From UHGV virus genome UHGV-0023958: DNA of 64,000 bases. One strand, written 5' to 3'. How positions within the stretch are numbered: the stretch's first letter is position 1; each line of letters opens with the position of its first letter. Of the stretch, positions 19-59,836 are shown piece by piece. This stretch comes from a virus. The position numbers and the translations under genes are program-made. Below the pieces are notes generated by a model. It worked only from the letters and a program-made list of their open reading frames with translations, was not told the origin of the DNA and ran no database searches.

Positions 19-1044
19 GTGATAATTGTAGAAAATAAATATGGTCAAGGTTATGTAGTATCTGAAGGTAGTAGTCTTGATAATGCAAGAAATTGGGCTG
101 AAAGAAGTGATTGGGAACCTAAAGAATATAAATATAAAAATGGTACTTTTACTTTAAAGGTTACTAACGCTGCTGGTTATTCATCTCAAGGGGGCAAATT
201 ATCTTTCTGGAATTGTCAAATTAGAACAGAAGATGAAAAGGAATTTTTAATTGGAATTGCATCAGATTGTCTTGCTGAACTTATCATAAATAATACTTTG
301 ATAAATGGCAAATGTCAAAATAAGATATATTTTGCAAGATGTGGAAATTCTACTTGGGCTATAACAGAAAATATGCCATCATATAAAGCTGCTTTAGAAG
401 ATAAAAAGATTAAGGAAACTAAAACAACTATTAAATACGAACCAGGTGATCTTGTGGGAAGTTTAACATATACAGAATTATATCTTGGTGAAGTTTATGA
501 GTATATAAGTTTTTATCAACTTAACTCACGCGATAGATATTTCAAACACTTTGAGGTCAATGATAGAGCCTATGATAAACTTATAGTTATAAATGATAAA
601 CCTAGAAAATTTCACTGGCTTGTAAATGCTTATGATATTGATGAAGATTTCAATAATGAACCCACATTCTTCTGTACTTATTATCTATCTAAAAATAAGC
701 CAAAACGTAGAATTATAAAGAAGAGTTATGCTTTAAAAGATTATATAAATAACGCCTTAGAAGAATCTATAAAATATACTGCAAATAGATCAAGTGAATT
801 TAGTAGTGATGATCCTGTGCCTGAAATAGAAGTTTATTTAAGACAGTTTGTAAATGTCTATAGTCGTAAAGAAAATTTACCTCAGCCTAATAAAGAATTA
901 ATTCAAGAATTACTTACAAAATATCGCGCTATAGATCCATATAATTATACGATTAGGCATAATTGTAGTTATGTTATATATGAGCACGACTTAACTCCTG
1001 AATTATTAGAAGGTATCAAATCTGGCAAACTTGTTAAAGTTTAA
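19..1044 (+). CDS. hypothetical protein (5' boundary uncertain, window starts inside upstream context)
   Basis: 341-codon ORF from track; no recognisable motifs. Confidence 0.35.
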   Translation: MIIVENKYGQGYVVSEGSSLDNARNWAERSDWEPKEYKYKNGTFTLKVTNAAGYSSQGGKLSFWNCQIRTEDEKEFLIGIASDCLAELIINNTLINGKCQNKIYFARCGNSTWAITENMPSYKAALEDKKIKETKTTIKYEPGDLVGSLTYTELYLGEVYEYISFYQLNSRDRYFKHFEVNDRAYDKLIVINDKPRKFHWLVNAYDIDEDFNNEPTFFCTYYLSKNKPKRRIIKKSYALKDYINNALEESIKYTANRSSEFSSDDPVPEIEVYLRQFVNVYSRKENLPQPNKELIQELLTKYRAIDPYNYTIRHNCSYVIYEHDLTPELLEGIKSGKLVKV

Positions 1045-1075
1045 ATTGTAAAAATTATAATTGAATAATAAATTG

Positions 1076-1107
1076 AAAAAAGTCAACGAAATTAGTTGAC
1101 TTTTTTT
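1076..1107 (+). terminator. rho-independent terminator hairpin whose 3' half forms the -35 of the next promoter
   Basis: AAAAAGTCAAC-gaaatta-GTTGACTTTTTTT inverted repeat plus T-run. Confidence 0.55.
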
Positions 1108-1124
1108 CTGTTTTAGTATATAAT
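1096..1124 (+). promoter_or_regulatory. sigma70-type promoter
   Basis: TTGACT(1096-1101) -17bp- TATAAT(1119-1124); upstream gaaattag A-tract. Confidence 0.6.
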
Positions 1125-1160
1125 AGTATTGTAAATCAAAAAAAGAGAGGTATTTTATTT

Positions 1161-1688
1161 ATGAAAACACTTTTGATTGTAAATCTTATTGCCCTTGTAG
1201 TTCTTGTAGTATTTTTGACTTTGCTTTTAATTAATTATCTTAAAACTAATAAAGCACTATTTCACACTACAGCTGAGTTGGCTAGCGTTAAAGATGAAAA
1301 AGATAAGATTAAGTCAGAGCTTAATATTTATACTAAACCAAATCTAGCAGATATTTACCCCGAAGTTTATAACATAGTAGCTGCATGGTGCAAAGAAGTT
1401 GGGATTTATCAGGTAGCAATTAGGAATAGATATGACTCTAAATCAAATTGCTATAAATTCACCTTGTATACTGAAAGACCTGGAGCTTTTATCGGTAAAG
1501 CTGGAAGCACAATTGAGAAATATAAAAAGATGCTGTATGAATGTAGAGTCGGTTGCATGATTGGACAGATTGAGATAGAAGAAATCTCTGGCATAGTAAA
1601 TCAGAATCAAGTTGATGTAGAAGATTATTATAATTCTTATATGTCTAATTGGTTCGATTACGAGGAGGCGGGAGAGTATTATGAATGA
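1161..1688 (+). CDS. hypothetical membrane protein (N-terminal TM helix)
   Basis: ORF after promoter; SD AAAGAGAGG; hydrophobic N-terminus LLIVNLIALVVLVVFLTLLLI. Confidence 0.45.
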   Translation: MKTLLIVNLIALVVLVVFLTLLLINYLKTNKALFHTTAELASVKDEKDKIKSELNIYTKPNLADIYPEVYNIVAAWCKEVGIYQVAIRNRYDSKSNCYKFTLYTERPGAFIGKAGSTIEKYKKMLYECRVGCMIGQIEIEEISGIVNQNQVDVEDYYNSYMSNWFDYEEAGEYYE

Positions 1689-1909
1689 ATTAGAAGAAAT
1701 GCTTAAAAAATTATATGGTCTGCCGCCTTATGATAATTGGTCGAATATTTGTTACGGTGATGGATATTTTGCTAAATCCATTGAAGACAAATTTTCAGAG
1801 CAAGAAATTAAGCAGGCAAAAAAGAAATTAAAAATTTTTTGAAAATCTTGTAAAAACATTTGATATATATATGATATAATATACTTGTAAATAGAAAGAG
1901 GTGTTTAAA

Positions 1910-2143
1910 ATGAAAGTTGAGGAATTATTTAAAGTTATTGATACGAGGTTTTTCTACCCTGATATTCATATTGTTGACGATGCAAACTCAAGAAGCGTCC
2001 AAACATTTAAATATCTGCGGGATGGCGGAACTTACGTTAAAGAAATGCTTAATCAATTTGGAGACAGAACAATTGTACCACTTGGTGTTGATTTTGGTAC
2101 TGATGAATATGGAATTGACTACATTATAATCGAGGTAAAATAA
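1910..2143 (+). CDS. hypothetical protein
   Basis: SD GAAAGAGGTG then ATG 1910; preceded by extended -10 TGaTATAAT at 1872-1880. Confidence 0.4.
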   Translation: MKVEELFKVIDTRFFYPDIHIVDDANSRSVQTFKYLRDGGTYVKEMLNQFGDRTIVPLGVDFGTDEYGIDYIIIEVK

Positions 2144-2144
2144 T

Positions 2145-2444
2145 ATGTTTGTAATAAGTATAAAGAAAATATTTGACTGTTCAGGAAACAGATTAGAGAA
2201 ACCAGAATATGAATATTTTAGTTATGATAAATATGCGGGTTCTTTTAGTACTGGCTATCCTACTTGGGATGATTTTTATCATGCTGAAACTTTTAAAACT
2301 GCTGAACAAGCTAAAAAGGTTTATATGGAAAATTTACATATTCTTTATTGCAGTTGGAAAGACTATGACAGGGAAAGCGTAAGAATTTGTGAAATTAAAT
2401 TTAAGCCTATAGAAAAATTACCTTGGAAGGAAAGTGAAGACTAA
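2145..2444 (+). CDS. hypothetical protein
   Basis: ORF tightly packed with neighbours (ATGTTTG overlap). Confidence 0.4.
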   Translation: MFVISIKKIFDCSGNRLEKPEYEYFSYDKYAGSFSTGYPTWDDFYHAETFKTAEQAKKVYMENLHILYCSWKDYDRESVRICEIKFKPIEKLPWKESED

Positions 2445-2446
2445 TT

Positions 2447-2734
2447 ATGGAAATTAAAACTTATTATATAGAATTTAACTCTTGTAAAGATGGAGTAGTT
2501 TATTCTTTAGAGCAAACTGTAGAAGCAGCAGATATTTATAATGCTATGACAATAGTAGAGAATTACTGCCATGACAATTATGGAACTTGTGAAATTACTA
2601 GCGTTAAGAAAGTAAATAAAGATACTTTTACGTGTGAAGTTTGTAAAAGAAAATATCAATGGGCTTCTCCATGTACACCCGATGACTGCGAAGATAGATT
2701 TAAAGATTTTTGCAATAGAATAGAAGAAAATTGA
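2447..2734 (+). CDS. hypothetical Cys-rich protein
   Basis: ORF track; CxxC pairs. Confidence 0.4.
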   Translation: MEIKTYYIEFNSCKDGVVYSLEQTVEAADIYNAMTIVENYCHDNYGTCEITSVKKVNKDTFTCEVCKRKYQWASPCTPDDCEDRFKDFCNRIEEN

Positions 2735-2752
2735 ATTTGTGAGGATGAAAAA

Positions 2753-3040
2753 ATGATTGATATTAATACAGCTGTAAGGACTACTGAACGCAAACGAAAG
2801 AAATGTAAAAAAGATAATACAGAAAAAGATTATCAAAGATTTTTAAAATATTTAAATAAAAAAATTATTAAGGCGTGTAAAAAGGGAAGTTTTGATTATT
2901 GTTTTGATGTTGGTTGTGAAAGAAAGATTTTAGATAGATTAAAAACTGATTTAAACAATTTGGGTTACAAAGTAAATATTCGTGGACCTTTTTATAGTTT
3001 AGATACTTATTGGGAAATAAGAATTAGTTGGGAAAAGTAA
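2753..3040 (+). CDS. hypothetical protein
   Basis: ORF with SD GAGGATGAAAAA. Confidence 0.4.
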   Translation: MIDINTAVRTTERKRKKCKKDNTEKDYQRFLKYLNKKIIKACKKGSFDYCFDVGCERKILDRLKTDLNNLGYKVNIRGPFYSLDTYWEIRISWEK

Positions 3041-3069
3041 GGAAAGGATAAAAGAGGAAGAAATTTAAA

Positions 3070-3522
3070 ATGAAATTAAAAGGTAAACAAGCAGATGCGT
3101 TTGTGGATGCTTTGTCCAAAAGTGAAAAAATGAATGAAGAAAAAGAGAGTGGATTGTGTGCTTATAAATCGATGAATATAGAAGAGATTAAAAAAGAAAT
3201 TGATTACAAGCAAAAATACAATGATTTAATTGCACATATAAATACAGTACCGTTTATCACTAGCCCGATGGGAGACCTGCCAGTTACGTCAACAACTGTC
3301 AGAAATCTTTTAGACAAGTTGATAAAAACGGAAGAAGAAAACCATAGTTTAAGTAAACAGCTTTATGATTTAAATATTTATATCAATACCATCGAAGAAA
3401 TTCAAAATAATAACACAAAACATCTTGTAGATCTAATTAAAAAGGATATTCCCAAAGAATATCATAAACAGATTGATGAAACAACTAACATATTTCTTGG
3501 AGTGCAAAATGGAAAGATCTAA
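3070..3522 (+). CDS. hypothetical protein
   Basis: ORF with SD AAGAGGAAG. Confidence 0.4.
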   Translation: MKLKGKQADAFVDALSKSEKMNEEKESGLCAYKSMNIEEIKKEIDYKQKYNDLIAHINTVPFITSPMGDLPVTSTTVRNLLDKLIKTEEENHSLSKQLYDLNIYINTIEEIQNNNTKHLVDLIKKDIPKEYHKQIDETTNIFLGVQNGKI

Positions 3523-3921
3523 ATCTATTTCTGTGCGAATCATAAACAAAATCAAAAATTTAAAGATGAAGATTTTTGAATATGAAGACGAAGAACCAGA
3601 ATATGTAAACAGAAGGGCTGTTGCAATTTGCGATAGACACATTGAAAAATATCTTGCAAACGTTACACCTTATGAATCTGAAAGAAAAGAATTACGAGAA
3701 AATATTAAGTGGACTTGTGATAACTGCATGGAGAAATTAGAAAAACTTGGTTGGGAAGTTTATGGGCAATTATGAGTTTGAAGAATTTGTAAAAATTCTT
3801 AAGTGGGAAATACAAAAATATACCGTGAATCAAAAGATGAATGGAAAAGAGATAAATCCAGAAAACATTATTGATTTGATTGTCAAATGTGAAAATAAAG
3901 CAATAAAAAAATACTTTACAG

Positions 3922-4425
3922 GTGAAAATAATGAAAGGAATTGAAGTTTACAGAGGAAAAGTTGTTGACGAAGACGAATACGTGCAGGGTATATTAATCG
4001 GAGAAGATCAAATCTTTCAATATACAGAAGATGGTGAGTGGTCAGTAAATTGCGGCATCGGTTGTTTTTCTATCATACCAGAAACGATTGCGTATTGTGG
4101 AAAAATGGATATTGGAGATTTGACGGTTCTTCCGAGAACGGAAGAAGTGCAAGAATATCTGAAAAACCTTCCAAAATTTTATCTCGTTGCTTGTTGGGCG
4201 AGATATGGAGTTGTTGAATTTCCGTATAGCGGGAAAGATGTATTTGACGAAAAAGAGGGGTATGTTCCGTTGATATGGGAGTACGATGACCACAATGGGA
4301 CTTCCGACGAATATTATTTAAGAAAAATAACGGACACCACAACAGCTTCGATTTGGAATTGGTATAATAATAAATCAGTAGCAGAAGATGTAGCGAAAAA
4401 ACTTAACGAAAAATTCGATAAGTGA
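3922..4425 (+). CDS. hypothetical protein
   Basis: 167-codon ORF; antisense ORFs inside judged spurious. Confidence 0.45.
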   Translation: MKIMKGIEVYRGKVVDEDEYVQGILIGEDQIFQYTEDGEWSVNCGIGCFSIIPETIAYCGKMDIGDLTVLPRTEEVQEYLKNLPKFYLVACWARYGVVEFPYSGKDVFDEKEGYVPLIWEYDDHNGTSDEYYLRKITDTTTASIWNWYNNKSVAEDVAKKLNEKFDK

Positions 4426-4435
4426 AAATAATTTC

Positions 4436-4465
4436 AAAAAGTCAATCAAAATCGGTTGACTTTTT
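4436..4465 (+). terminator. terminator hairpin fused to the next promoter's -35
   Basis: AAAAAGTCAATC-aaaat-CGGTTGACTTTTT. Confidence 0.5.
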
Positions 4466-4484
4466 GTTTTGATTGTGCTATACT
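4456..4484 (+). promoter_or_regulatory. sigma70-type promoter
   Basis: TTGACT(4456-4461) -17- TATACT(4479-4484); SD AAAGGAGAG then ATG 4515. Confidence 0.6.
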
Positions 4485-4514
4485 AATTATAACGAATCTT
4501 AAAGGAGAGAGTTT

Positions 4515-4904
4515 ATGAAGAAAGAATATGGTTTCAGACACGCAGAATTCAATTGCGAGTATAGATATCCGATTATTTTTCATCCGATTCATAATTTCAA
4601 AGAATGGAAAGCTTATCGGTGGCGCAGAAAATATCTTTTAAAAAACGGTTTCGGACCAGAAGCATTTTGGGATACGGATCATTGGTTTGTTGATGTTATG
4701 CTTGAGATTTTAAAGAAACATTATGAATGGAGCAAAGAAAACCTGGATTCAAAAAATAATGAAGGTGTAGCAAATTTTCAAAAAGATCTTGCCCGTATGA
4801 TTGAAATTTTGGAATTTAAAAAAGATGAAAACGAAGCAGATGTGATTACTGACAGCGAATTTTTTAAATTACTTCAAAAGAGACTTCCTTTTTTATGGAA
4901 TTAG
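4515..4904 (+). CDS. hypothetical protein; the only gene I found that ends in TAG
   Basis: 129-codon ORF; stop TAG 4902-4904 abuts the left end of the IS element. Confidence 0.5.
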   Translation: MKKEYGFRHAEFNCEYRYPIIFHPIHNFKEWKAYRWRRKYLLKNGFGPEAFWDTDHWFVDVMLEILKKHYEWSKENLDSKNNEGVANFQKDLARMIEILEFKKDENEADVITDSEFFKLLQKRLPFLWN

Positions 4905-6235
4905 CGCAAGAAAATCCGTGACTTTAGTCGTGGGATGAATTGCGCGTAACAAGTTATGGAAGTAACTCGCGATAGAGAGTATGTTTACTCGATTCAATAT
5001 CACACAAAGAGGAGGTGAAGAATGTGGGAAAAGCTTATAAATATCGTATATATCCGAATGAAAAGCAGAAAGAGATAATAGCAAAGACATTTGGTTGTTG
5101 CCGTTTTGTATATAATAAGTATCTTGCGCAGAGAATTGAATTATATCAAACAAATAAATAGAGTTTGTCATACGTTAAGTGTGCAAAAGAAATATCTAAA
5201 TTAAAAGACGAACTTGAATGGCTTAAGGAAGTTGATTCCACGGCTCTTCAATCTTCCCTCAAAGATTTAGATAATACTTATCAGAAATTCTTTAAAGAAC
5301 ATACAGGATTTCCGAACTTCAAAAGTAAGAAAACGCACAGATATTCTTACAAATCTAGATATGTGAACGATAACATAAAATACCTCGGTAAATATATCAA
5401 ACTTCCAAAACTCGGATTGGTAAAAACGAAAAACAAGTTAATACCACAAGGAAGAATAGTAAATGTAACGATTTCTCAAGAACCAAGTGGTAAATATTAT
5501 GTTTCATTGTGTTGTGTAGATGTTGAAATAAAAGCATTACCAACAACTGGTAACACAATAGGCATAGATTTAGGAATTAAAGAATTTTGCATAACAAGTG
5601 ACGGAAAACTTGTGAACAATCCGAAATATCTTAAAAACTCGTTAAATAAACTTACAAAGTTGCAAAGAGAATTATCTCGAAAACCAAAAGATAGTTCTAA
5701 TCGTAACAAAGCAAGAATAAAAGTAGCAAGATTATACGAGAAAATTTCAAACCAGCGTAAAGACTTTTTACAAAAACTCTCAACCAATATCATTCGAGAA
5801 AACGATGTAATTTGCATTGAAGATTTGCAGGTGAAGAATATGGTTAAAAATCATAAGCTTGCACAGGCAATTAACGATGTTTCTTGGTCGGAATTTGTTC
5901 GAGAGTTAGAATATAAAGCACATTGGCATGGTAAGTTAGTTATTAAGGTTGATAGATTTTTTCCTAGTTCTCAAACTTGTAGTATTTGTGGATATAAGAA
6001 CGAGGAAACAAAAGATCTAAAAGTAAGAGAATGGGATTGTCCAGTTTGTCATACTCATCACGACAGAGATGTGAACGCTGCGATAAACATTCTTAATGAA
6101 GGACTAAAGCAATTAGCTTAAATATAAGAACCGCAGGAACTGTGGGGATAGCTTGGTAAATATTCTGACAGTAGTTGGAAGTTCCCAAGAATCTCACGGC
6201 TTTTAGCCGTGAGAGGTCCAAGGGATTAAAATAAT
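4905..6235 (+). mobile_element. IS200/IS605-family TnpB-only insertion element (no tnpA) with subterminal right-end hairpin
   Basis: TnpB ORF plus perfect 8-bp hairpin CTCACGGC-TTTTA-GCCGTGAG at 6193-6213 downstream of the stop, typical right-end/omegaRNA region; left boundary approximate. Confidence 0.55.
5024..6121 (+). CDS. tnpB: TnpB (IS605 OrfB, RuvC-like plus zinc finger) carrying one in-frame TAG at 5159-5161
   Basis: N-terminus [31 protein letters not shown] from GTG 5024, in frame through TAG into the 5165 ORF; RuvC motifs [27 protein letters not shown]; C-terminal CSICG..CPVCH zinc finger. Confidence 0.75.
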
Positions 6236-7051
6236 ATGACAGAACAAGAAATTTTTAATAGAGTAAAAGAGCACCACGAAGAAGCTAAATCATTAGGATA
6301 TAATGTCGTTGCAACTATTCTTCAAGGTTCACAGAATTACGGTCTTGAAATTGATTGCGAAGAATATCATTCTGATGTAGATACAAAATGTATCATAATT
6401 CCTAGTTTCGATGATTTTTGTTCTAATAAAGGTAGAATTTCTACTACGTATGTTCGGGCAAACAATGAACATATTGATTTAAAGGATGTTGGAACGTTAT
6501 TTGAATTGTTTAGGAAAGCAAATGTAAATATTCTTGAAATATTATTTTCAAAATATTATATTGTTGAATCAGATTACAAAGACTGGTTTGAAAAACTTCG
6601 TAGTTACGGAGAGCGTATTTGTAGTGCGAATAAGTGTCAAACATTCAGAACTATGTCTGGTTTGTCAATGGAAAAATACAAAGCACTTAAACATCCTTAT
6701 CCCTCAATTATTGATAAGATTGAAAAATATGGATATGACGGAAAACAACTTCATCATATTTTGCGTATAGCTAATTTCATCGGAAGATATTATCGTGGAG
6801 AAAGATTTAAAGATTGTCTGAAAGTCCATAAAAATTCTCGTGAGAATATGGATAAAGCAAAACTGAACTGGTTTTCTCTTGGTACGGCGGAATCTCTTGC
6901 AAAGATGTGGGACGATTTCACGAAAGAAATCAAAGATAAGTATTGCGAAGAACATAAAAACGATCCTATCGACGAAAAGATGTACGAAATTTTAAACAAA
7001 ATGAAAGTAGAAGCATACAAAGTGGCATTTAGAAAAGAATTGTCTCTGTAA
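6236..7051 (+). CDS. putative Pol-beta-superfamily nucleotidyltransferase
   Basis: GSQNYGLEIDCEEYHSDVDT resembles the GS..(D/E)xD nucleotidyltransferase signature; function not assignable. Confidence 0.35.
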   Translation: MTEQEIFNRVKEHHEEAKSLGYNVVATILQGSQNYGLEIDCEEYHSDVDTKCIIIPSFDDFCSNKGRISTTYVRANNEHIDLKDVGTLFELFRKANVNILEILFSKYYIVESDYKDWFEKLRSYGERICSANKCQTFRTMSGLSMEKYKALKHPYPSIIDKIEKYGYDGKQLHHILRIANFIGRYYRGERFKDCLKVHKNSRENMDKAKLNWFSLGTAESLAKMWDDFTKEIKDKYCEEHKNDPIDEKMYEILNKMKVEAYKVAFRKELSL

Positions 7052-7342
7052 AACAAGGTGAATTATTATGGAAAATGTAGTATTTTTTGAAACCGATAAA
7101 GATTTAAAGAAACTAACCGGTGTGAAAGATTTTAAAGAACTTTGGGATGAAGGCTGGGATTTGGATGATTGGGATTTCGGTATTCAGACTGAAGAAGAGT
7201 GGGATGAAATGAATCCAAATTCTAAATATTATGATGATTGGAAACATTTTTATCGCTGGTGCATGGAAAATATGATGAATACGTTCCAGGTAGGTCATTA
7301 TACGCATAATGGGAAACATTATTATTTTAAACATCATTAACT

Positions 7343-7771
7343 ATGTTTAGCGAGAAGAAAATAAATAAATATTTTGAGCTTGCAAAGAACGCTTCGAAGT
7401 TCTCGGATTTCCATAAACAGAAGATTGGTGCAATTATTGTAAATAAAAACCACGTTGTGTCTGTCGGTTGGAATACACAAAAAACTTCTACGATGCAAAA
7501 GCAATACAATAAAAGTATTTCAAAGCCTTGGATAGACACTTCACCGAATTGTATGCACGCCGAAATAAACGCGTTACAAAGATTACCAAAGCAACTACGC
7601 GATGATTTATCTAAGAGCCACCTGTTTGTTTATCGAGAAAGTAATGGCGTAAAGAGATTAGCGAAACCTTGTAAGGCATGTGAAAAAGCATTAAGAGATT
7701 TCGGGATTACGAATGTTCATTACACAGGATTGAATTCTTTTGTTTATGAAAAATATTTAGAGGGAGAATGA
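7343..7771 (+). CDS. dCMP (deoxycytidylate) deaminase
   Basis: zinc-deaminase motifs CMHAEINAL and PCKACEKAL; IGAIIV..GWN core. Confidence 0.65.
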   Translation: MFSEKKINKYFELAKNASKFSDFHKQKIGAIIVNKNHVVSVGWNTQKTSTMQKQYNKSISKPWIDTSPNCMHAEINALQRLPKQLRDDLSKSHLFVYRESNGVKRLAKPCKACEKALRDFGITNVHYTGLNSFVYEKYLEGE

Positions 7772-8139
7772 TGATTTTTGTTTTGAAAGATGATGTGTGG
7801 TGCGACACAGTATTTAGTTCTATTGATAGCAAAAGTTTAAATATTTGTGTTAGAAATTCTTATAAAATCAAATATTCCGATGATATTGAGAATTTATTAA
7901 AAATAATTAGCGATAGTCCTACTTTCACGGAATTTAAAATTGCTGGTTATAAACGAACATTGTTAAGTATGCGGCGAGAATGGGAAGCGCATAATCTTCT
8001 TTATAAACTCGGAATTTTTAAAGATAGCACAGGAAGCACAGATTTAGATAACAACGAAAGCTTTATACGAAAGGCTGGCTATACGGTTTTATCGTTTATT
8101 TATAGATTGTTTAATAGGAGAAAGAAAGTAAAAAAATGA
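7768..8139 (+). CDS. hypothetical protein
   Basis: ORF overlapping neighbours by 4 nt (operon). Confidence 0.4.
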   Translation: MMIFVLKDDVWCDTVFSSIDSKSLNICVRNSYKIKYSDDIENLLKIISDSPTFTEFKIAGYKRTLLSMRREWEAHNLLYKLGIFKDSTGSTDLDNNESFIRKAGYTVLSFIYRLFNRRKKVKK

Positions 8140-8822
8140 TTGAAGTTGAATTGATTTCATATACACAAAATCCAGTAAATGTAATTGAGAGCGCGGCATC
8201 GACTTGCTACGATTCTACGCCGACAGACGGAAGAATTATGAACCACTGCTACAAATCGGGGCATCATTCAGTTTTGGAATTTGCTGAATTTGCTTTTAAA
8301 ATCAAAGGTGTGAGCAGAGCTTTAACGCACCAACTGGTACGCCATAGATTGGCAAGTTTTGCACAGAGGTCGCAACGCTATTGTTCAGAAGACGGTTTTC
8401 AATACGTTATTCCCCCGAAGATTAAAAATGATCCGAAAGCGTTAGATTTATACGAAAATTTGATGAATTATATTTCTCGCACTTATAATGAATTGATAGA
8501 AAGAAATATTGAACCAGAAGATGCACGCTTTGTTTTACCGAACGCTTGCGAAACAGAAATTTGCGTAAAAATGGATCTGCGAGAACTTATTCATTTTTGC
8601 AACGAAAGACTTTGTGTGTGTGCACAGTGGGAAATTCGTCAACTTGCGAGTAAGATGAAAGAGAAAGTTATTGAGGTCGAACCAAAATTTGCACCTTATC
8701 TTGTTCCGAAATGTGAAAAACTTTCACCTTATAGCTTCTGCACAGAGAGCAAAAAGAGAAGTTGTGGTAGACACCCTGTTATCGGAGATATTTTTAAAAA
8801 GGCGGAAAATAAAAATGAGTGA
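8136..8822 (+). CDS. thyX: FAD-dependent thymidylate synthase ThyX
   Basis: ThyX signature RHRLASFAQRSQRY (RHR..S motif); about 228 aa. Confidence 0.8.
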   Translation: MIEVELISYTQNPVNVIESAASTCYDSTPTDGRIMNHCYKSGHHSVLEFAEFAFKIKGVSRALTHQLVRHRLASFAQRSQRYCSEDGFQYVIPPKIKNDPKALDLYENLMNYISRTYNELIERNIEPEDARFVLPNACETEICVKMDLRELIHFCNERLCVCAQWEIRQLASKMKEKVIEVEPKFAPYLVPKCEKLSPYSFCTESKKRSCGRHPVIGDIFKKAENKNE

Positions 8823-9082
8823 TTATAAGAGTTTCACCTATTCGGTTGGCGATGATACCGAAGTAACAAATTATTATTCTGCAGATACCATATATTATGC
8901 AATTGCCGACATTATTTTCGAAGATAATATTTATGATATTGTGAAAGACAAATTGACCGAACCAGAAATGGTTAGAATTATAACAAATCTTTCAAAAGAA
9001 ATTAAAGAGGCAAATATAAATATTGATTATTATATGGATTGCCTTAAAGAGTATTTTCACAACAAAGACAGCGAGGTTTAAA

Positions 9083-9493
9083 ATGAGATTTTCATTTAGA
9101 GTTTATGATTTAAATTATGATCATATTTTTTCTTATCACGAAATGTTTCATAAAAAAGATGATAGAAATAAAGTAGCTTATAAAATATATAAAAACATTG
9201 AAATGTTTTACATAACTCATAAAGACGAATTCCCAGCGATTATCGAAGTATGGAAATACAACGTTTCTTCGCATAATACACGTAAGTTGATGTGTGTTGC
9301 GAATTATGACGAAGAACAAAAAGAAGGGTTTTCGATTGCGTTCACAAATGAATTTATGAAAACATTAAAAGCGTACCCGCTTCCGAAGCCTGTGAGACGA
9401 GAGTTTAAAATGCAGTTCGGAGACCTCGTAAATATAATAGAAGATAGTATTTTAAAAAAAGACGGTGACGAAGATGCGGGACTGCTCTCCTAA
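9083..9493 (+). CDS. hypothetical protein
   Basis: SD AGCGAGG then ATG 9083. Confidence 0.4.
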   Translation: MRFSFRVYDLNYDHIFSYHEMFHKKDDRNKVAYKIYKNIEMFYITHKDEFPAIIEVWKYNVSSHNTRKLMCVANYDEEQKEGFSIAFTNEFMKTLKAYPLPKPVRREFKMQFGDLVNIIEDSILKKDGDEDAGLLS

Positions 9494-9887
9494 AAGATGT
9501 TTGTTTCCGAGTTGTGGCAAAGGTATTTGTTGTTCGTTATGCGATGATAAAAAATGCAAAGAAAGATGTGTAGATGATGCGACCGTTTGCAAATATATAA
9601 CAACAGACAACGGAACAATTATTAATCGAAAGAAACCAAAAATTGAAGTAAGGACACTTTCGTATTTAAAGGAAAATTCTTATACAAATTGTTTGCTCGA
9701 AGAAACACGTTGCCATTTAAAAATTTGTTGCAAGTTTTGTGAGAATTTCAAATCTTGTGAAAATGCTTGTCAGGAAAATCCTGCGCAATGCAAATATATC
9801 ACTATTAAACCAACACAGGTTGTAAAGCAAGAACCAAAGAAGCGTGGAAGAAAAAAGAAGGAGAATGTTGAAAATGCAGAACTTTGA
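9465..9887 (+). CDS. hypothetical Cys-rich protein with basic KKRGRKKK tail
   Basis: ORF track; repeated C-x2-C and CK motifs. Confidence 0.4.
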   Translation: MTKMRDCSPKRCLFPSCGKGICCSLCDDKKCKERCVDDATVCKYITTDNGTIINRKKPKIEVRTLSYLKENSYTNCLLEETRCHLKICCKFCENFKSCENACQENPAQCKYITIKPTQVVKQEPKKRGRKKKENVENAEL

Positions 9888-10321: not shown

Positions 10322-10358
10322 AAAACCGTGCAAAATCACTTGACTATTGTACGGTTTT
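10322..10358 (+). terminator. hairpin AAAACCGTGC..GTACGGTTTT whose loop contains the -35 of the next promoter
   Basis: 10-bp inverted repeat flanking TTGACT, followed by TTTT. Confidence 0.45.
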
Positions 10359-10368
10359 ATGATATAAT
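10340..10368 (+). promoter_or_regulatory. sigma70-type promoter of the NAD operon
   Basis: TTGACT(10340-10345) -17- TATAAT(10363-10368). Confidence 0.6.
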
Positions 10369-10416
10369 ATGTGTAAAATCGACCACTGGTATGGTCGTTT
10401 TGAAAAGGTGGTAGGT

Positions 10417-11199
10417 ATGTCTCAATATTTCATAACATCAGATGTTCATGGTTTCTTCGACGAGCTTATGGTTGCCTTAAATTCAAAAGAGTTTGATGTG
10501 AATAATTCAGACCACAAACTGATTATTCTCGGAGATCTTTTCGATAGAGGACCAGACAATAGAAAAGTTTATGAATTTGTAAAATCACTCGGAGATAGAT
10601 TTATATACGTTCGAGGAAATCATGAAGATTTACTCAGAGAGTGCGTTAGAGAAATCGTTTCTGGAAGAGAGGTGTCGGAACATCATTGGCATAATAGAAC
10701 TGTAGACACTATCGCTGAATTTACGCAAATGAACACAAATGTGTTTCGAGGGTTTGTTCGTTGGGAAAGTGTAAATCAAACAACGTGGGAAGTTATGAAA
10801 CCGATTCTCGATTGGATTGATGAAAAGTCGGTTGATTGTTACGAACTCGATGATAATGTGTTTGTACACGGCTGGATTCCGTCAACTTTCAGAAAAAATT
10901 GGACGAAAGAAAACTGGAAGCGCGCCCGTTGGTACAATGGAATGGAAATGTGGAAGAATGGTTATTGTTTGGAAGACAAAATCATTTGGTGTGGACATTG
11001 GTGCTGTAGTTACGGTTGGTCGAAAATAAGACAGGACTACAAAGAATTTCCACAGAAAAATAGAAAAGGCTGGGAAAAATCGTTTCAACCGTTTATTGAT
11101 GACGGAATTGTGGCGTTAGATTCTGGTGTAACATATAGTAAATTTTTAAATTGTGTTGTTTACGACACACAAAACAAAGAGGTAAATATTTATGTTTGA
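10417..11199 (+). CDS. PPP-family metallophosphoesterase (Ser/Thr phosphatase or ApaH-like)
   Basis: DVHGFFDEL (GDxHG), LGDLFDRGPDN (GDxxDRG), RGNHE (GNHE); SD AAAAGGTGG then ATG 10417. Confidence 0.6.
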   Translation: MSQYFITSDVHGFFDELMVALNSKEFDVNNSDHKLIILGDLFDRGPDNRKVYEFVKSLGDRFIYVRGNHEDLLRECVREIVSGREVSEHHWHNRTVDTIAEFTQMNTNVFRGFVRWESVNQTTWEVMKPILDWIDEKSVDCYELDDNVFVHGWIPSTFRKNWTKENWKRARWYNGMEMWKNGYCLEDKIIWCGHWCCSYGWSKIRQDYKEFPQKNRKGWEKSFQPFIDDGIVALDSGVTYSKFLNCVVYDTQNKEVNIYV

Positions 11200-11938
11200 T
11201 GCAAAAAAAGTAAAATCTGAATTGGTAAACTGGATTAAGGAAACTGTTGGAGATTCTAATGTTGTTATTGGAATTAGTGGCGGTAAAGACTCTTCAATTA
11301 CAGCAGCATTATGTGTTGAAGCACTTGGTAAAGATAAGGTATATGGTGTTTTAATGCCACAGAACGTACAACTTGATATTGATAAAGCGCAACAGCTTGT
11401 TGATATTTTAGGTATTAAAAATTTTACTGTTAATATTGGTTCTACTTATAATGAATTGACTAAATGTGTTCACGAGGCATTTTGTTCATCTAAAGAAAAT
11501 TGCTATCTTCCAGATTTATATACCACTAATACTCCCGCAAGAATTAGAATGACTGTATTGTACGGTGTAGCAGCTTTAATTGGAAATTCTCGTGTTGCAA
11601 ATACCTGCAACCTGAGTGAAGATTATGTTGGTTATGCTACAAAATATGGTGATGGTGCAGGAGATTTTAGTCCTTTGAGCGATTTAACTGTAACAGAAGT
11701 TAAGCAAATTGGATATGAACTTGGATTACCGAAAGAACTTATTGAAAAGATTCCAGATGATGGTATGTGCGGGCAATCAGATGAGGAAAAACTTGGTTTT
11801 ACTTATGCTGTTTTGGATAAATATATTAGAACTGGTGAAATCGAAGATTTAAATACAAAGAACAAGATTGATAGACTGCATTTGGCTGGTCTTCATAAAC
11901 TTGTTCTTATGCCTAAGTTCATTCATAAAGAGTTATAA
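11192..11938 (+). CDS. nadE: NH3-dependent NAD+ synthetase NadE
   Basis: PP-loop GISGGKDSS; ARIRM; TKYGDGAGDFSPL; 248 aa. Confidence 0.75.
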   Translation: MFDAKKVKSELVNWIKETVGDSNVVIGISGGKDSSITAALCVEALGKDKVYGVLMPQNVQLDIDKAQQLVDILGIKNFTVNIGSTYNELTKCVHEAFCSSKENCYLPDLYTTNTPARIRMTVLYGVAALIGNSRVANTCNLSEDYVGYATKYGDGAGDFSPLSDLTVTEVKQIGYELGLPKELIEKIPDDGMCGQSDEEKLGFTYAVLDKYIRTGEIEDLNTKNKIDRLHLAGLHKLVLMPKFIHKEL

Positions 11939-12360
11939 TGCACAAAGTTTTTGAAAAAGATTATTTTTTGTATAAATTGATTAAACAATATCAAGAACAT
12001 GGCAATATCATTATTGCTTATGATTTTGACGATACAGTTCACGATTACCGCACTCATGAACCGATAAACGAGATAATTGATTTATTACAACAACTCAATA
12101 AAAATGCAAATGTAAAATTGATTTGTTATACATCTAGAATAGATAATGAAATAGAATATGTAAAAAACTTTTTATCCAATAACCAAATACCATATACAAC
12201 TATAAATGAACCAGTTTTTGTAGAGGGAATGACTTCTGGGAAAATATATTATAATATTTTAATTGATGACAAATCTGGAATTATAGAAACATATAGAATT
12301 TTAAATGATTTTTTGAATTATATAAAAGAAAATAAGGAGATTATTTATGAACAAAAATAA
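11938..12360 (+). CDS. HAD-superfamily phosphatase
   Basis: HAD motif I DFDDTV, motif II CYTSR, motif III IDDKSG. Confidence 0.5.
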   Translation: MHKVFEKDYFLYKLIKQYQEHGNIIIAYDFDDTVHDYRTHEPINEIIDLLQQLNKNANVKLICYTSRIDNEIEYVKNFLSNNQIPYTTINEPVFVEGMTSGKIYYNILIDDKSGIIETYRILNDFLNYIKENKEIIYEQK

Positions 12361-13582
12361 GTATGCTGAGCTTTGTCCGATTGATTATAATGACGGTTGG
12401 GCGGTCCATTATTTGACAGAAACAGATGTATACAAATTTAATATGGGTATGGTGATGTTTTTAAAATATCCTAATCTTTGGGGAAAATACATCTTTAAAT
12501 GCAGAACTAAGGATGTAAAATTTAATAAAGGAATTCTTTCTGAAATCAATCGTCAAATCGACCATTTGTGCTCTTTAAGATTCACAGAACCAGAATTACA
12601 GTATCTTAAAACAATTCGGTATCTTGGTGGCGCATATCCAGAATATATTGAATATTTGAGATTATGGCATCCAATTCGTGATTATGTAAAGACTTGGATC
12701 GAAGATGATATGCTTCATATTGAAGTAGACGGACCTATGTTCCAATGTATGCAATTTGAAATTTATCTTTTGGAAATTGTGGCACAATCATATAATTATA
12801 TCAATGGCAATATCGAAGAAATTGAAGCATCTGGTATCAAAAAACTCGATGAAAAATTAGAAAAGTTTAAGAATGGCACTTATACTTTTAACTTCGCTGA
12901 ATTTGGCGCGAGAAGAAGAGCTACTGCTCGTATGCAGGATATTGCCGTAGATAAATGTCTGCAAACAGGTCATTGTGTCGGAACTTCCAATGTATATCTT
13001 GCAATGGTTTATGGGGTGACTCCGATCGGAACTTATGCTCACGAGTATGTTCAAATGTTCCAAGGTATTGATGGAATTCAGCTTGCCTATACAAATAAAT
13101 ACGCTCTTAAAGAATGGTTTGAAGTATTTAATGGTGATAATGGTACGGCCTTAACTGATACTTTGTCTACTGATTTATTCCTTATGGATTTTGATAAGCT
13201 TCAAGCAACTATGTACACTGGTGTAAGACATGACTCTGGAGATCCGTATGTTTGGGGAGATAAAATTATTGAGCATTATAAAAAACTTGGAATTGATCCC
13301 AAAACAAAAACATTGTTGTTTAGTGATTCGTTAGATTTTAATAAGGCACAAGAAATCTACAATTATTTTAAAGACAAGTCCAAAGTTTCGTTTGGCATCG
13401 GAACATATATTTCAAATGATACGTGTATTGCTCCTTTGAATATTGTTGTCAAACTTCAATATGTAAATAATAAACCAGTTGCAAAACTTTCCGATGTGTC
13501 TGGTAAAACTATGTGTCAAGATAAAAATTATATTGAATATTTAAAAAATGCTGTTGAATACAGACTTGAAAGTGGGAGATAA
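12347..13582 (+). CDS. pncB: nicotinate phosphoribosyltransferase (PncB-like; NadV-like not excluded)
   Basis: N-terminal TETDVYKFNM (PRTase TDxYK motif), GTYAHEYVQMFQ (GTxAH), 411 aa. Confidence 0.65.
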   Translation: MNKNKYAELCPIDYNDGWAVHYLTETDVYKFNMGMVMFLKYPNLWGKYIFKCRTKDVKFNKGILSEINRQIDHLCSLRFTEPELQYLKTIRYLGGAYPEYIEYLRLWHPIRDYVKTWIEDDMLHIEVDGPMFQCMQFEIYLLEIVAQSYNYINGNIEEIEASGIKKLDEKLEKFKNGTYTFNFAEFGARRRATARMQDIAVDKCLQTGHCVGTSNVYLAMVYGVTPIGTYAHEYVQMFQGIDGIQLAYTNKYALKEWFEVFNGDNGTALTDTLSTDLFLMDFDKLQATMYTGVRHDSGDPYVWGDKIIEHYKKLGIDPKTKTLLFSDSLDFNKAQEIYNYFKDKSKVSFGIGTYISNDTCIAPLNIVVKLQYVNNKPVAKLSDVSGKTMCQDKNYIEYLKNAVEYRLESGR

Positions 13583-13588
13583 AGTATT

Positions 13589-14146
13589 ATGAATGTTAAT
13601 ATTATAATTGATATGCAAAACGATTTTATCGAAGGTTCTCTTAAAAATGATTCTGCAAAGGCAATTGTTCCAAAAATTTGCGAATTTATCAAAAAGAGAA
13701 AAGATGAGAATTTCGTAAGTACATTAGATACTCATCTTGACGAAAAATATCTTCAAACTCAAGAAGGTAAGATGCTTCCGATTAAGCATTGTATATATAA
13801 AACTTGGGGACATGAACTGAATTCATCAATACAAAATGTTTTATATGAGAATAATGTAAGTATAAAATATGCTTATAAGGAAACATTTGGAATGAATCCA
13901 GAAGGTTGGGAAAATATATTTAACAACACAGATTATAAAGAGAAAATTCATTTCTTTTTAACTGGCGTATGCACAGATATTTGCGTCGTATCAAATGCTA
14001 TGATTTTGAAATCTTTGTTCCCAGAAAATGAAATTACTGTATATTCTGATTTATGCGCTGGAACGACGCCAGAAAATCATCAAAAAGCACTTTGTGTTAT
14101 GCAAAGTTGCCAAATTAAGGTAGAGAAATTCTTTGATAATGTATAA
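13589..14146 (+). CDS. pncA: nicotinamidase, isochorismatase family (PncA)
   Basis: IDMQNDF and GVCTDICV cysteine-hydrolase motifs. Confidence 0.65.
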   Translation: MNVNIIIDMQNDFIEGSLKNDSAKAIVPKICEFIKKRKDENFVSTLDTHLDEKYLQTQEGKMLPIKHCIYKTWGHELNSSIQNVLYENNVSIKYAYKETFGMNPEGWENIFNNTDYKEKIHFFLTGVCTDICVVSNAMILKSLFPENEITVYSDLCAGTTPENHQKALCVMQSCQIKVEKFFDNV

Positions 14147-14669
14147 ATATAATTCTGGTTTGATAGTTGGAAGATTCCAATTCTTTCATAATGGACATAA
14201 ATCAATTCTTGATAAAGCATTAAAAGAATGTGAAATTGTAATTGTTTGTATTGGTAGTGTCGAAGAAAAACGAAATTATCGCAATCCATTTAATTATGAA
14301 GAACGTAAAAAATTTATTTTATCGGCTTATTCAAGAAAGGAAAGAAAAAGAATTAAATTTATTCCACTTGTATCTATAGGCGTTGGAGATAATCCTGTTT
14401 GGGGTAATTATATTTTAAATTCTTGCAAGTTTTATCATAATATTTCGCCCGAAGTATATTATACTGGAATGGAATCTGATAGAAATAATTGGTTTCCAAA
14501 TCAAAATATTAAAAACGTTTATATTGATAGAAATATAATTAATATTAGCGCAACAGAACTCAGAGAGGCTTTATTTATTAAAAAGGATTTATCTATAATT
14601 TTTCAGTATATGAATTATAAAGTTGCAAAAGGAATAATTAAAAAATGCAAAAATTATTTAAACATTTAA
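14133..14669 (+). CDS. nicotinamide/nicotinate mononucleotide adenylyltransferase (NadM-like)
   Basis: GRFQFFHNGH matches the GRFQPFHxGH motif of NadM/NadR NMNATs. Confidence 0.65.
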   Translation: MIMYKYNSGLIVGRFQFFHNGHKSILDKALKECEIVIVCIGSVEEKRNYRNPFNYEERKKFILSAYSRKERKRIKFIPLVSIGVGDNPVWGNYILNSCKFYHNISPEVYYTGMESDRNNWFPNQNIKNVYIDRNIINISATELREALFIKKDLSIIFQYMNYKVAKGIIKKCKNYLNI

Positions 14670-15202
14670 AATTAGTGCATCAGCATAGAAAATATGTTAG
14701 AAAAATATGTTTTAAAATGGGTATTTTCTGGAGAGGGATTGTACACGATTTAAGCAAATATTCGATTCAAGAATTAAAAATTGCTAAATACTACAATGGA
14801 AAGAAATCACCTCATCAACAATGTAGAGATGAAATCGGATATTCTCCCAGTTGGATTCATCATAAGCATAAAAACAAACATCATTATCAATATTGGCAAG
14901 ATGATGATGAAGATAATAAAATCATACCTATTAAAATGCCATATAAATATTGTATAGAAATGTTCTGTGATATGGTCGGCGCAGGAATGGCTTATTCGAA
15001 AGATAAGTGGAATACTGGCTCTCCTATTGAATATTGGGAAGAACATTGCATAGGAAAGGCTATTATTCATGAAGAAACAATCTCTCTGATGAATACACTG
15101 TTCTCTATTTTAAAACAATATAACACTATTGATGAATTTTATGTTTGGTATAAAAAACATAAAAAAGAAATTAAAAAAAGATATGAAACAGTAATTTTAT
15201 GA
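14645..15202 (+). CDS. putative HD-domain phosphohydrolase, last gene of the NAD operon
   Basis: H..H...HD arrangement (HQHRKY..GIVHDLSKY); weak. Confidence 0.3.
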   Translation: MQKLFKHLKLVHQHRKYVRKICFKMGIFWRGIVHDLSKYSIQELKIAKYYNGKKSPHQQCRDEIGYSPSWIHHKHKNKHHYQYWQDDDEDNKIIPIKMPYKYCIEMFCDMVGAGMAYSKDKWNTGSPIEYWEEHCIGKAIIHEETISLMNTLFSILKQYNTIDEFYVWYKKHKKEIKKRYETVIL

Positions 15203-15211
15203 AAATTTTCA

Positions 15212-15250
15212 AAATATCCTTGCGAAATTAGTTGACAAGGATATTTTTTT
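15212..15250 (+). terminator. terminator hairpin AAATATCCTTG..CAAGGATATTT plus T-run; loop and stem carry the next -35
   Basis: 11-bp inverted repeat followed by TTTTTTT. Confidence 0.55.
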
Positions 15251-15260
15251 GTGATATAAT
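15232..15260 (+). promoter_or_regulatory. sigma70-type promoter
   Basis: TTGACA(15232-15237) -17- TATAAT(15255-15260). Confidence 0.6.
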
Positions 15261-15291: not shown

Positions 15292-15690
15292 ATGAGATTG
15301 TGGCACAAAGATTTAATCGAATATCTTCCAAAGTTACAGTTAGTAGCACAATGGAGGGAATTAAATTCTATTTATGTTCATCAGAATAATCATATTTTGA
15401 TTAATTATATCCATACTTATCCAAAAGAGTATTTATTATCTTATTCAAATTGTATTATAAATGAGATGAAAAAACGTGGAATTAAAATTAACAGTTATTT
15501 AAATTACGCAAAATATTTCAAAGACATTAAAAAAATTGATAATTTGAAATTCAAAGAGCATGATGATGATTATTTGAAAATTTGTTATTATAATTTATAC
15601 GAAAAATACCTACGTGGACAAAAAGATTTTAGTGAAAATATTTTTTCAAGATTAAATATTTATATAAACAATAGGATGGTATTAAAATGA
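15292..15690 (+). CDS. denV: pyrimidine-dimer DNA glycosylase (T4 endonuclease V / DenV-like)
   Basis: MRLWHKDLIEYLPKLQLVAQWRELNSIY parallels T4 endoV [27 protein letters not shown] including the catalytic-Glu context; KRGIKIN vs KRGFNIK. Confidence 0.5.
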   Translation: MRLWHKDLIEYLPKLQLVAQWRELNSIYVHQNNHILINYIHTYPKEYLLSYSNCIINEMKKRGIKINSYLNYAKYFKDIKKIDNLKFKEHDDDYLKICYYNLYEKYLRGQKDFSENIFSRLNIYINNRMVLK

Positions 15691-59760: not shown

Positions 59761-59836
59761 GCTTTCATGGCTCAATTGGTAGAGCATTTGATTTGTAATC
59801 AAAGGATTCTCGGTTCAAGTCCGAGTGGAAGCTCCA
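59761..59836 (+). tRNA. tRNA-Thr (anticodon UGU), CCA encoded
   Basis: cloverleaf: acceptor GCTTTCA/TGGAAGC, D-stem GCTC/GAGC, anticodon stem TTTGA/TCAAA with loop TTTGTAA, T-arm CTCGG-TTCAAGT-CCGAG, discriminator T then CCA. Confidence 0.7.

Follow-up and report, generated by a model that had tools for sequence, protein, structure and literature searches.

The depletion of nicotinamide adenine dinucleotide (NAD+) is among the commonest outputs of bacterial immunity, and in the literature searched three phage pathways that rebuild this cofactor have been validated experimentally. NARP1 (Adps plus Namat, to which NARP1-AP adds the Macro-domain phosphatase Adpp) is, according to its authors, primarily phage-encoded and was validated as a counter-defence system, and NARP2 (Nampt plus Nmnat), which depends on phosphoribosyl pyrophosphate (PRPP) and starts from nicotinamide, overcomes Thoeris and DSR2 (10.1101/2024.02.11.579819). 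The third, NARP3, consists of PnuC and NadR (PMC13464706). The deamidated Preiss-Handler route is not treated in the papers on NARP1/2, NARP3 and aRES, and the literature searched holds no pathway under the name NARP4, the sole text match being an unrelated paper. Preiss-Handler genes of phages have nevertheless been described, in a bioinformatic study that counted 174 "NAD-jumbo phages" whose salvage or Preiss-Handler pathways are complete (Li et al. 2024, Microbiome, PMC11662467), one of which, Kuafu_71, has a pncB-nadD-nadE cluster. Furthermore, a phage genome paper of 2026 speculated that phage pncB, nadM, nadD and nadE may counter NAD+ depletion (PMC13384950), and phage PA5oct up-regulates the pncA-pncB1-nadE operon of its host (PMC7318152). 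The subject of the present work is an operon of seven genes in a 64,000-nt stretch of the virus genome UHGV-0023958 (the whole stretch is called the window, and all positions refer to it unless another contig is named), which is predicted to encode a self-sufficient deamidated route from nicotinamide to NAD+.

Four of the seven genes carry this prediction, those for PncA, PncB, NadE and an adenylyltransferase of the NadM type (NMNAT) for nicotinamide mononucleotide (NMN) or nicotinate mononucleotide (NaMN). As a sequence-only reading of this DNA had proposed, they would together form a complete Preiss-Handler pathway, and the assignment is sound on profile and motif evidence. In it, PncA would deamidate nicotinamide to nicotinate, PncB would join nicotinate to PRPP to give NaMN, the NadM-type enzyme would convert NaMN into nicotinate adenine dinucleotide (NaAD), and the NH3-dependent NadE would amidate NaAD to NAD+. 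The other three genes encode putative phosphohydrolases, namely a metallophosphoesterase of the PPP branch, a capless phosphatase of the HAD superfamily and a DUF5662 protein with an HD-like fold (Table 1). The seven + strand open reading frames (ORFs) were found where that reading had placed them, and its seven family labels hold in searches with hidden Markov models and in motif and fold checks.

Table 1. Coordinates of the operon, of its flanking signals and of other features of the window
Feature	Position	Strand	Basis or remark
Promoter of the operon, sigma-A/sigma-70 type	10340..10368	+	-35 TTGACT; 17-nt spacer with TG (extended -10, TGnTATAAT); -10 TATAAT; 11/12 match
Metallophosphoesterase, lambda-PP/ApaH/PrpE type, 260 aa	10417..11199	+	PF00149 6.7e-14; phrog_246 2.7e-26; alternative ATG 10369
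NH3-dependent NAD+ synthetase NadE without glutaminase domain, 248 aa	11192..11938	+	TIGR00552; PF02540; SGGKDS 29-34
Capless HAD-superfamily phosphatase, 140 aa	11938..12360	+	PHROG 1238 family
Nicotinate phosphoribosyltransferase PncB, 411 aa	12347..13582	+	NF003704; TIGR01514; PDB 1YIR
Nicotinamidase PncA, 185 aa	13589..14146	+	isochorismatase PF00857 1.3e-16
NadM-type NMN/NaMN adenylyltransferase without Nudix domain, 176 aa	14139..14669	+	alternative TTG 14133
DUF5662 protein, HD-superfamily-like metal-dependent phosphohydrolase, 185 aa	14645..15202	+	PF18907 4.7e-31
Terminator-like hairpin and T-run	15212..15253 (hairpin 15212-15246)	+	after last stop 15202; free energy -14.5 kcal/mol, z -3.3
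Next promoter	15232-15260	+	12/12 consensus; precedes DenV-like gene
DenV-like pyrimidine-dimer DNA glycosylase	15292-15690	+	PF03013 3.2e-15; own 12/12 promoter right after the operon
TnpB/IS605 OrfB-type gene	5165-6121	+	phrog_506 7e-121; PF01385 and PF07282 on identical contig
RlaP-like nucleotidyltransferase	6236-7051		just downstream of TnpB/IS605 gene
ThyX	8136-8822
Small cysteine-rich protein, repeated CxxC-type motifs	9474-9887	+	no family match; directly upstream of YopX-like gene and operon
RdRP-fold protein, 936 aa	53519-56329	-	PF05183 2e-10; phrog_8308 2e-95
tRNA-Thr (TGT)	59761-59836	+	sole Rfam/ARAGORN match in the window

The seven co-directional genes lie on the + strand within 10369-15202 (the first starting at 10369 or 10417), their junctions being overlaps of 8, 1, 14, 8 and 25 nt and a single gap of 6 nt, in keeping with the overlapping genes that had been described. 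The pattern TTGAC-N17-19-TATAAT occurs at 18 sites in the window, when 0.33 would be expected by chance. Its occurrences at 10340 (the -35 box, which is also where the sequence-only reading had its span begin) and at 15232 are consecutive on the + strand, which leaves the cluster itself without a comparable promoter, and the terminator-like hairpin behind the last gene reaches, with its T-run, into the -35 box of the promoter that follows. Promoter pattern and hairpin together support the earlier proposal of one promoter for seven genes, which would constitute a single transcription unit; no riboswitch or other Rfam element was found in or near the operon. Two start codons deserve a comment. 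The first gene most likely begins at ATG 10417 and not at ATG 10369, since the -10 box runs to 10368, so that the upstream ATG cannot be on an mRNA leader, since the Shine-Dalgarno sequence AAAGGTGG stands just 5' of ATG 10417, and since residue 17 is where all the profile matches set in. The gene for NMNAT probably starts at ATG 14139.

As for the individual enzymes, PncB clears two cut-offs curated by NCBIfam, with 426 bits for NF003704 (379 required) and 377 for TIGR01514 (269 required), and aligns end to end with solved nicotinate phosphoribosyltransferases (1YIR, 1.5e-75); its A231-H232-E233 does not vary when eight phage homologues are aligned. It is the only phosphoribosyltransferase present, and it has the domain NAPRTase_N and lacks NAMPT_N. 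In the case of PncA, all seven PDB matches at E <= 0.001 are nicotinamidases, the best being PncA of P. horikoshii (1IM5, 1e-10), to whose catalytic triad D8, K97 and C132 correspond, as do D47, H49 and H67 to its metal ligands. NadE reaches 168 bits with TIGR00552 (cut-off 63.65) and 2.4e-51 with PF02540, with 2E18 and 3FIU as nearest PDB entries. Finally, NMNAT matches PF01467 (CTP_transf_like, 1.4e-13) and the PDB entries 2QJO, 1EJ2 and 1F9A, and it contains the motifs H17-N-G-H20 (HxGH) and ISATELR 136-142 (ISxTxxR).

By its gene content the operon is none of NARP1, NARP2 and NARP3, and its likeness to each of them differs. With NARP2, as known from Vibrio phage KVP40, it would share the synthesis of NAD+ from nicotinamide, PRPP and ATP independently of ADP-ribose (ADPR), an adenylyltransferase of the NadM lineage and the expectation that NAD+ is made with or without an active defence. 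It differs in having a bona fide PncB instead of Nampt and in needing two extra steps (those of PncA and NadE) with additional ATP and ammonia. Its NMNAT also has no Nudix ADPR-pyrophosphatase domain of the kind found with NadM in bacteria, KVP40 and Sinorhizobium phage Phosso. Regarding NARP1, no match to PF14572 or PF18127 was found in the operon or in the called genes of 2347-23582, nor among the scanned ORFs of at least 150 aa elsewhere in the window; since the window thus has no Prs-like or Nampt-like gene, the operon would not re-use ADPR via ADPR pyrophosphate (ADPR-PP). NARP3 is likewise a restoration of NAD+ by ordinary salvage enzymes in a phage, although its precursor is imported nicotinamide riboside and that of the operon would be intracellular nicotinamide; domains of PnuC and NadR are absent from the operon and its flanks. 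Bacterial pncA-pncB-nadE salvage, like the NadM/NadE networks known from Francisella, Acinetobacter and archaea, draws on the same four families and the same chemistry, and the pairing of NadM with NadE makes the order of the last two steps a question there too, whereas the genes of the window are viral, overlap within one operon under a phage early promoter and are joined by phage-specific accessory hydrolases.

The clusters of the NAD-jumbo phages share with the operon that they are physically clustered complete deamidated routes of gut or rumen phages with PncB and NadE as core. Unlike them, the operon has an adenylyltransferase of the NadM and not the NadD type, it includes PncA, so that nicotinamide would be its entry point, and it adds three co-transcribed phosphohydrolases. 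Those clusters belong to genomes of >200 kb, while the longest scaffold matching the window, which may be incomplete, has 159,917 bp. The claim that the operon is a distinct variant therefore holds only in part: it is not one of the three NARP pathways, and its NadM-type enzyme, the PncA that it includes and, most of all, the HAD phosphatase associated with NARP, with the HAD::NadE fusions treated below, are variant features; its novelty is weakened by the clusters already published (PMC11662467), by the suggestion of counter-depletion (PMC13384950), by the Phosso cluster and by 337 matching stretches in IMG/VR.

These 337 stretches carry relatives of PncB, and in the best 80 of them the neighbours within 8 kb were counted. 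NadE is present near PncB in 69, PncA in 60, a NadM-type NMNAT in 20 and all four genes in 20, the module genes occurring in at least six different orders on contigs of about 135-300 kb. Clusters of PncB and NadE, often with PncA, are therefore common in IMG/VR, and they are also seen in cultured jumbo phages. Phosso has a NadE-x-PncB...MutT-NMNAT arrangement (that is, NadE, PncB, Nudix, NMNAT), and the jumbo Agrobacterium phage Atu_ph07 has PncB together with an "ADP-ribose pyrophosphatase" similar to NMNAT.

Among the accessory genes, the HAD phosphatase has the firmest link to NAD+ metabolism. The protein has the HAD motifs I-IV (DxDxT, S/T, K, DD) on a Rossmannoid fold, as judged from a fold search, which was used for it and for the DUF5662 protein because a sequence search of the PDB gave nothing meaningful for either; PHROG 1238 is labelled "phosphoheptose isomerase", a name that, given the complete set of phosphatase motifs and the fold, is probably wrong. 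Its neighbourhood was surveyed in 80 IMG/VR loci within 6 kb (48 clusters after de-replication at 70% identity). A Prs-like gene is present in 50 and a Nampt-like gene in 47 of the 80 loci, the commonest order being Prs-like > HAD > Nampt-like (24 loci); at the level of clusters, NAD genes lie nearby in 34 of 48 and a Prs-like and/or Nampt-like gene in 31. Bacillus phage Belinda (NC_031024) has such a trio, annotated as Prs (gp68), Nampt (gp67) and "phosphoheptose isomerase" (gp66), as does the crAss-like phage cr126_1 (NC_055884, gp044-046). Moreover, two loci hold in-frame HAD::NadE fusions in single ORFs, L174 (6001-7236, 411 aa) and L175 (2970-4076, 368 aa), whose NadE parts are 46-48% identical to NadE of the window and which stand within PncA-(Prs)-NAMPT clusters (3184-7236 and 930-4076, respectively). 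Members of the family thus turn up repeatedly beside the NAD+ reconstitution genes of phages, and the phosphatase is a genuine accessory of them; no mention of this phosphatase or of the fusion was found in the literature searched. In a PDB comparison aimed at the deposited Adps structures, the Prs-like protein of L174 returned canonical PRPP synthetases only. The same locus has, 3.6 kb downstream, a gene resembling the anti-CBASS/Thoeris sponges of the Acb2/Tad1-hairpin type (10842-11198) and, a few kb downstream, an RtcB ligase. As a separate observation, the 735-kb genome of the uncultured phage LR756501.1 contains a homologue of the HAD protein (425725-426078, 39.5% identity, 3e-20) about 4 kb from one of PncB (430263-431432, 38%, 3e-63); Li et al. 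credit that phage with only nadD of the NAD pathway (PMC11662467).

The same phosphatase connects the operon with NARP1-type loci. In L289 (IMG/VR 3300045988_060821, 2842-8850) the genes for PncA, a Prs-like and a Nampt-like protein, HAD, NadE and two metallophosphoesterases (Metallophos) follow one another, and five more loci (L287, L294, L298, L299 and L303) have similar operons. The Prs-like protein of L289 is 30% identical (6e-28) to Adps and its Nampt-like protein 35% identical (1e-98) to Namat of Pseudomonas phage JG004, both of which are listed as NARP1 genes by the NARP1 authors (10.1101/2024.02.11.579819). This arrangement suggests a deamidated branch attached to NARP1, which might perhaps lead from nicotinate and ADPR-PP to NaAD and NAD+. 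Hence, one and the same set of PncA, HAD and NadE, with or without a metallophosphoesterase, accompanies two different cores, and the function of the phosphatase must suit both of them. What could it act on? Inorganic pyrophosphate (PPi), NADP+ or NADP(H), and 2'-P-ADPR or 1''-P-ADPR are candidates, all of them guesses; the hydrolysis of PPi would fit both cores because each coupling step releases it. NARP1-AP offers a precedent for a phosphatase that extends an NAD+ reconstitution pathway, although Adpp has a Macro fold. Homology of the HAD or the PPP protein to Adpp was rejected, Adpp being a Macro-domain protein and the examined part of Table S1 of the NARP1 report listing Macro neighbours only.

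For the two remaining hydrolases the link to NAD+ is weaker, and it comes close to an even chance that the functional unit comprises four or five of the seven genes, with the metallophosphoesterase and the DUF5662 protein as passengers that serve RNA-end repair, protein dephosphorylation or deoxynucleoside triphosphate pools. The metallophosphoesterase has the signature of the calcineurin-like PPP/ApaH/lambda-PP branch (DxH, GDxxDRG, GNH[ED], H, GH) in its motifs DVHG 9-12, GDLFDRG 39-45, GNHE 67-70, VHGW 150-153 and GHW 193-195, and its N-terminus resembles ApaH, PrpE, lambda phosphatase and the phosphatase domain of bacterial Pnkp. Several counts speak against a dedicated role. Homologues of it stand near the module in only 2 of 80 PncB loci and 2 of 48 HAD clusters, and are otherwise common "Ser/Thr phosphatase" genes of Enterococcus, Listeria and Bacillus phages, so that its standing as a conserved pathway member is weak. 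In addition, an RlaP-like gene occurs in the window, and in L093 a homologue of the HAD protein lies near a kinase-Metallophos-RNA ligase gene. The DUF5662 protein has the metal-binding motif H..HD..D on a helical HD fold, and a survey of 80 viral and 80 bacterial loci found it without NAD neighbours in 61 and in all 80, respectively, the bacterial loci being mostly from rumen and gut Clostridia (Ruminococcus, Oscillospiraceae, Lachnospiraceae). ThyA, dihydrofolate reductase (DHFR) and dCMP deaminase are its commonest neighbours; it is therefore a general gene of nucleotide-metabolism islands, and the idea that it is specific to NAD was discarded. What argues for the membership of both is, on the other hand, the 8-nt overlap between the metallophosphoesterase and NadE genes and the 25-nt overlap between those of NMNAT and DUF5662, the recurrence of the order HAD > NadE > Metallophos in the unrelated arrangement of the L289-type loci, and the occurrence of DUF5662 no more than 8 kb from PncB in 26 of 80 loci, in some cases flanked by NAD genes in shuffled orders (NadE > DUF5662 > PncB; PncA > DUF5662 > PncB). 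If they belong to the pathway, either of them might replace the Nudix ADPR pyrophosphatase missing from NadM; alternatively, they could act in nucleotide metabolism. The "two extra phosphohydrolases" that the sequence-only reading had counted besides the HD-like one thus fare differently, the HAD protein having a strong genomic link to NAD+ operons and the metallophosphoesterase a weak one. The literature search found no paper that mentions DUF5662. As side observations, in L011 (6283-8552) a DUF5662 gene lies close to those of a nucleoside 2-deoxyribosyltransferase and of "Sequestin" (PF21825), with no NAD genes, and in L039 (448-1338) a longer DUF5662-like paralogue (296 aa) adjoins the standard one.

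Regarding the biological role, the balance tips slightly towards an early operon of a gut or rumen Bacillota phage whose self-sufficient salvage of nicotinamide would offset NAD+-depleting defence. The operon would be transcribed early by the host RNA polymerase. NAD+ cleavage releases the base nicotinamide; by taking up this product, the pathway would keep NAD+ up and so offset depletion by TIR, SIR2, DSR, SEFIR and RES systems, much as NARP2 does. Such offsetting is the most likely selective value of the operon, and a counter-defence role is plausible on three grounds: the analogy with NARP2, which has the same precursor, uses PRPP as well and was validated against Thoeris and DSR2; the presence of PncA, which points to nicotinamide as input; and the accessory genes shared with NARP1-type operons. 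Some points weigh on the other side, since phage Preiss-Handler clusters have so far been described bioinformatically only, no recognised anti-defence gene was seen beside the operon in the window, and NARP2 raises NAD+ even when no defence system is present (10.1101/2024.02.11.579819), which makes a metabolic and a counter-defence benefit inseparable on sequence. A purely auxiliary metabolic module, which would supply the NAD(P)-dependent folate and nucleotide enzymes of phage replication in niacin-dependent gut or rumen Clostridia, is for its part rather unlikely. It would fit the effect of NARP2 just mentioned, the position of the operon in a region of nucleotide metabolism (ThyX, dCMP deaminase, FolD, dNMP kinase and an NT5C-like gene), the co-localisation of DUF5662 and NAD genes with ThyA, DHFR and dCMP deaminase in relatives, and the interpretation by Li et al. 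of such clusters as an NAD+ supply that complements host pathways (PMC11662467). PncA, however, makes the cleavage product and not an environmental vitamin the expected input, and the HAD-like accessory and the PncA/NadE/metallophosphoesterase set also accompany pairs of the NARP1 type, which was validated as counter-defence; besides, the two roles are not mutually exclusive.

If the operon works as predicted, phages would also use the ordinary four-step deamidated route of bacteria. As this route needs neither ADPR nor Nampt, defences that damage the ADPR moiety, aRES among them, should leave it unaffected. Bioinformatic work has published the core idea before, and the value of the present operon would lie in its accessory enzymes and in the modular link to NARP1, not in a new principle; in particular, a widespread and mislabelled phage family (PHROG 1238) receives a concrete class of function. 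A bolder reading, to which we give little credence, would make PncA, HAD and NadE, with or without the metallophosphoesterase, a portable "deamidated branch" that joins either PncB plus NadM or an Adps plus Namat NARP1 core (as in L289, L174 and L175), the operon being then a fourth NAD+ reconstitution pathway, so far missed by experiment, with the HAD protein, and possibly the PPP and HD-like ones, as dedicated components. In that case the hydrolases might make usable precursors from NADP(H) or from phosphorylated products of NAD+ breakdown, drive the three steps that release PPi, or degrade nucleotides that act as immune signals.

The canonical order of the last two steps, with NaAD as substrate of NadE, is favoured. 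Most of the PncB plus NadE clusters lack a detectable NadM-type NMNAT, so that their NadE proteins, which are 50-64% identical to that of the window, would have to use NaAD made by the host. The order of Francisella, which has the same net pathway, is improbable here; in it NadE would be an NMN synthetase that turns NaMN into NMN, from which the NadM-type enzyme would make NAD+. In its favour, NadM replaces NadD in Francisella, where NadE is an NMN synthetase (PMC3376133), the enzyme of the window is of the NadM type, a family that handles NMN well, and NadE scores almost equally with the Francisella NMN synthetase 3FIU (111.7 bits) and with its best match (115.6; 60-72 with NadE of E. coli and B. 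subtilis). Against it, that top match, 2E18, is the archaeal NAD synthetase of P. horikoshii, the NadM enzymes of archaea and Acinetobacter are bifunctional (NMN/NaMN) and paired with ordinary NAD synthetases (PMC3376133), and related phage NadE genes (69 of 80 loci) mostly have no NadM-type NMNAT in the surrounding 8 kb (20 of 80), which fits NaAD as substrate. Apart from the near-equal scores, two features of NMNAT temper the preference for the canonical order, as its best NCBIfam matches, NadM-Nudix and archaeal NMNAT, all stay below the equivalog cut-offs and its preference for NaMN or NMN is not readable from the sequence.

The window itself is of phage origin, judging from its genes for ThyX, dCMP deaminase, YopX, the DenV-like glycosylase and a YonO-like RNA polymerase, from its PHROG matches, from an identical PncB protein on the 159,917-bp metagenome scaffold ERZ28615470 (ENA) and from relatives on the IMG/VR contigs of 135-300 kb; the identical protein also occurs on a 14-kb Logan contig. 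A nucleotide search with the operon against 50,697 GenBank phage records gave a single weak match of 206 bp, so there is no close cultured relative among them. The Shine-Dalgarno and sigma-A signals, the size of the contigs with relatives and the DUF5662 homologues in metagenome-assembled genomes of Clostridia point to a tailed phage of about 160-175 kb that would infect gut or rumen Bacillota. The DNA is AT-rich, with a GC content of about 27-39% per 2-kb window. The RdRP-fold protein probably represents a phage RNA polymerase of the single-subunit, YonO-like kind. Despite it, the phage seems to lean heavily on host transcription of the sigma-A type, as many of the 18 promoters have the extended TG and their strands track the switches of GC skew near 37 kb and 58 kb.

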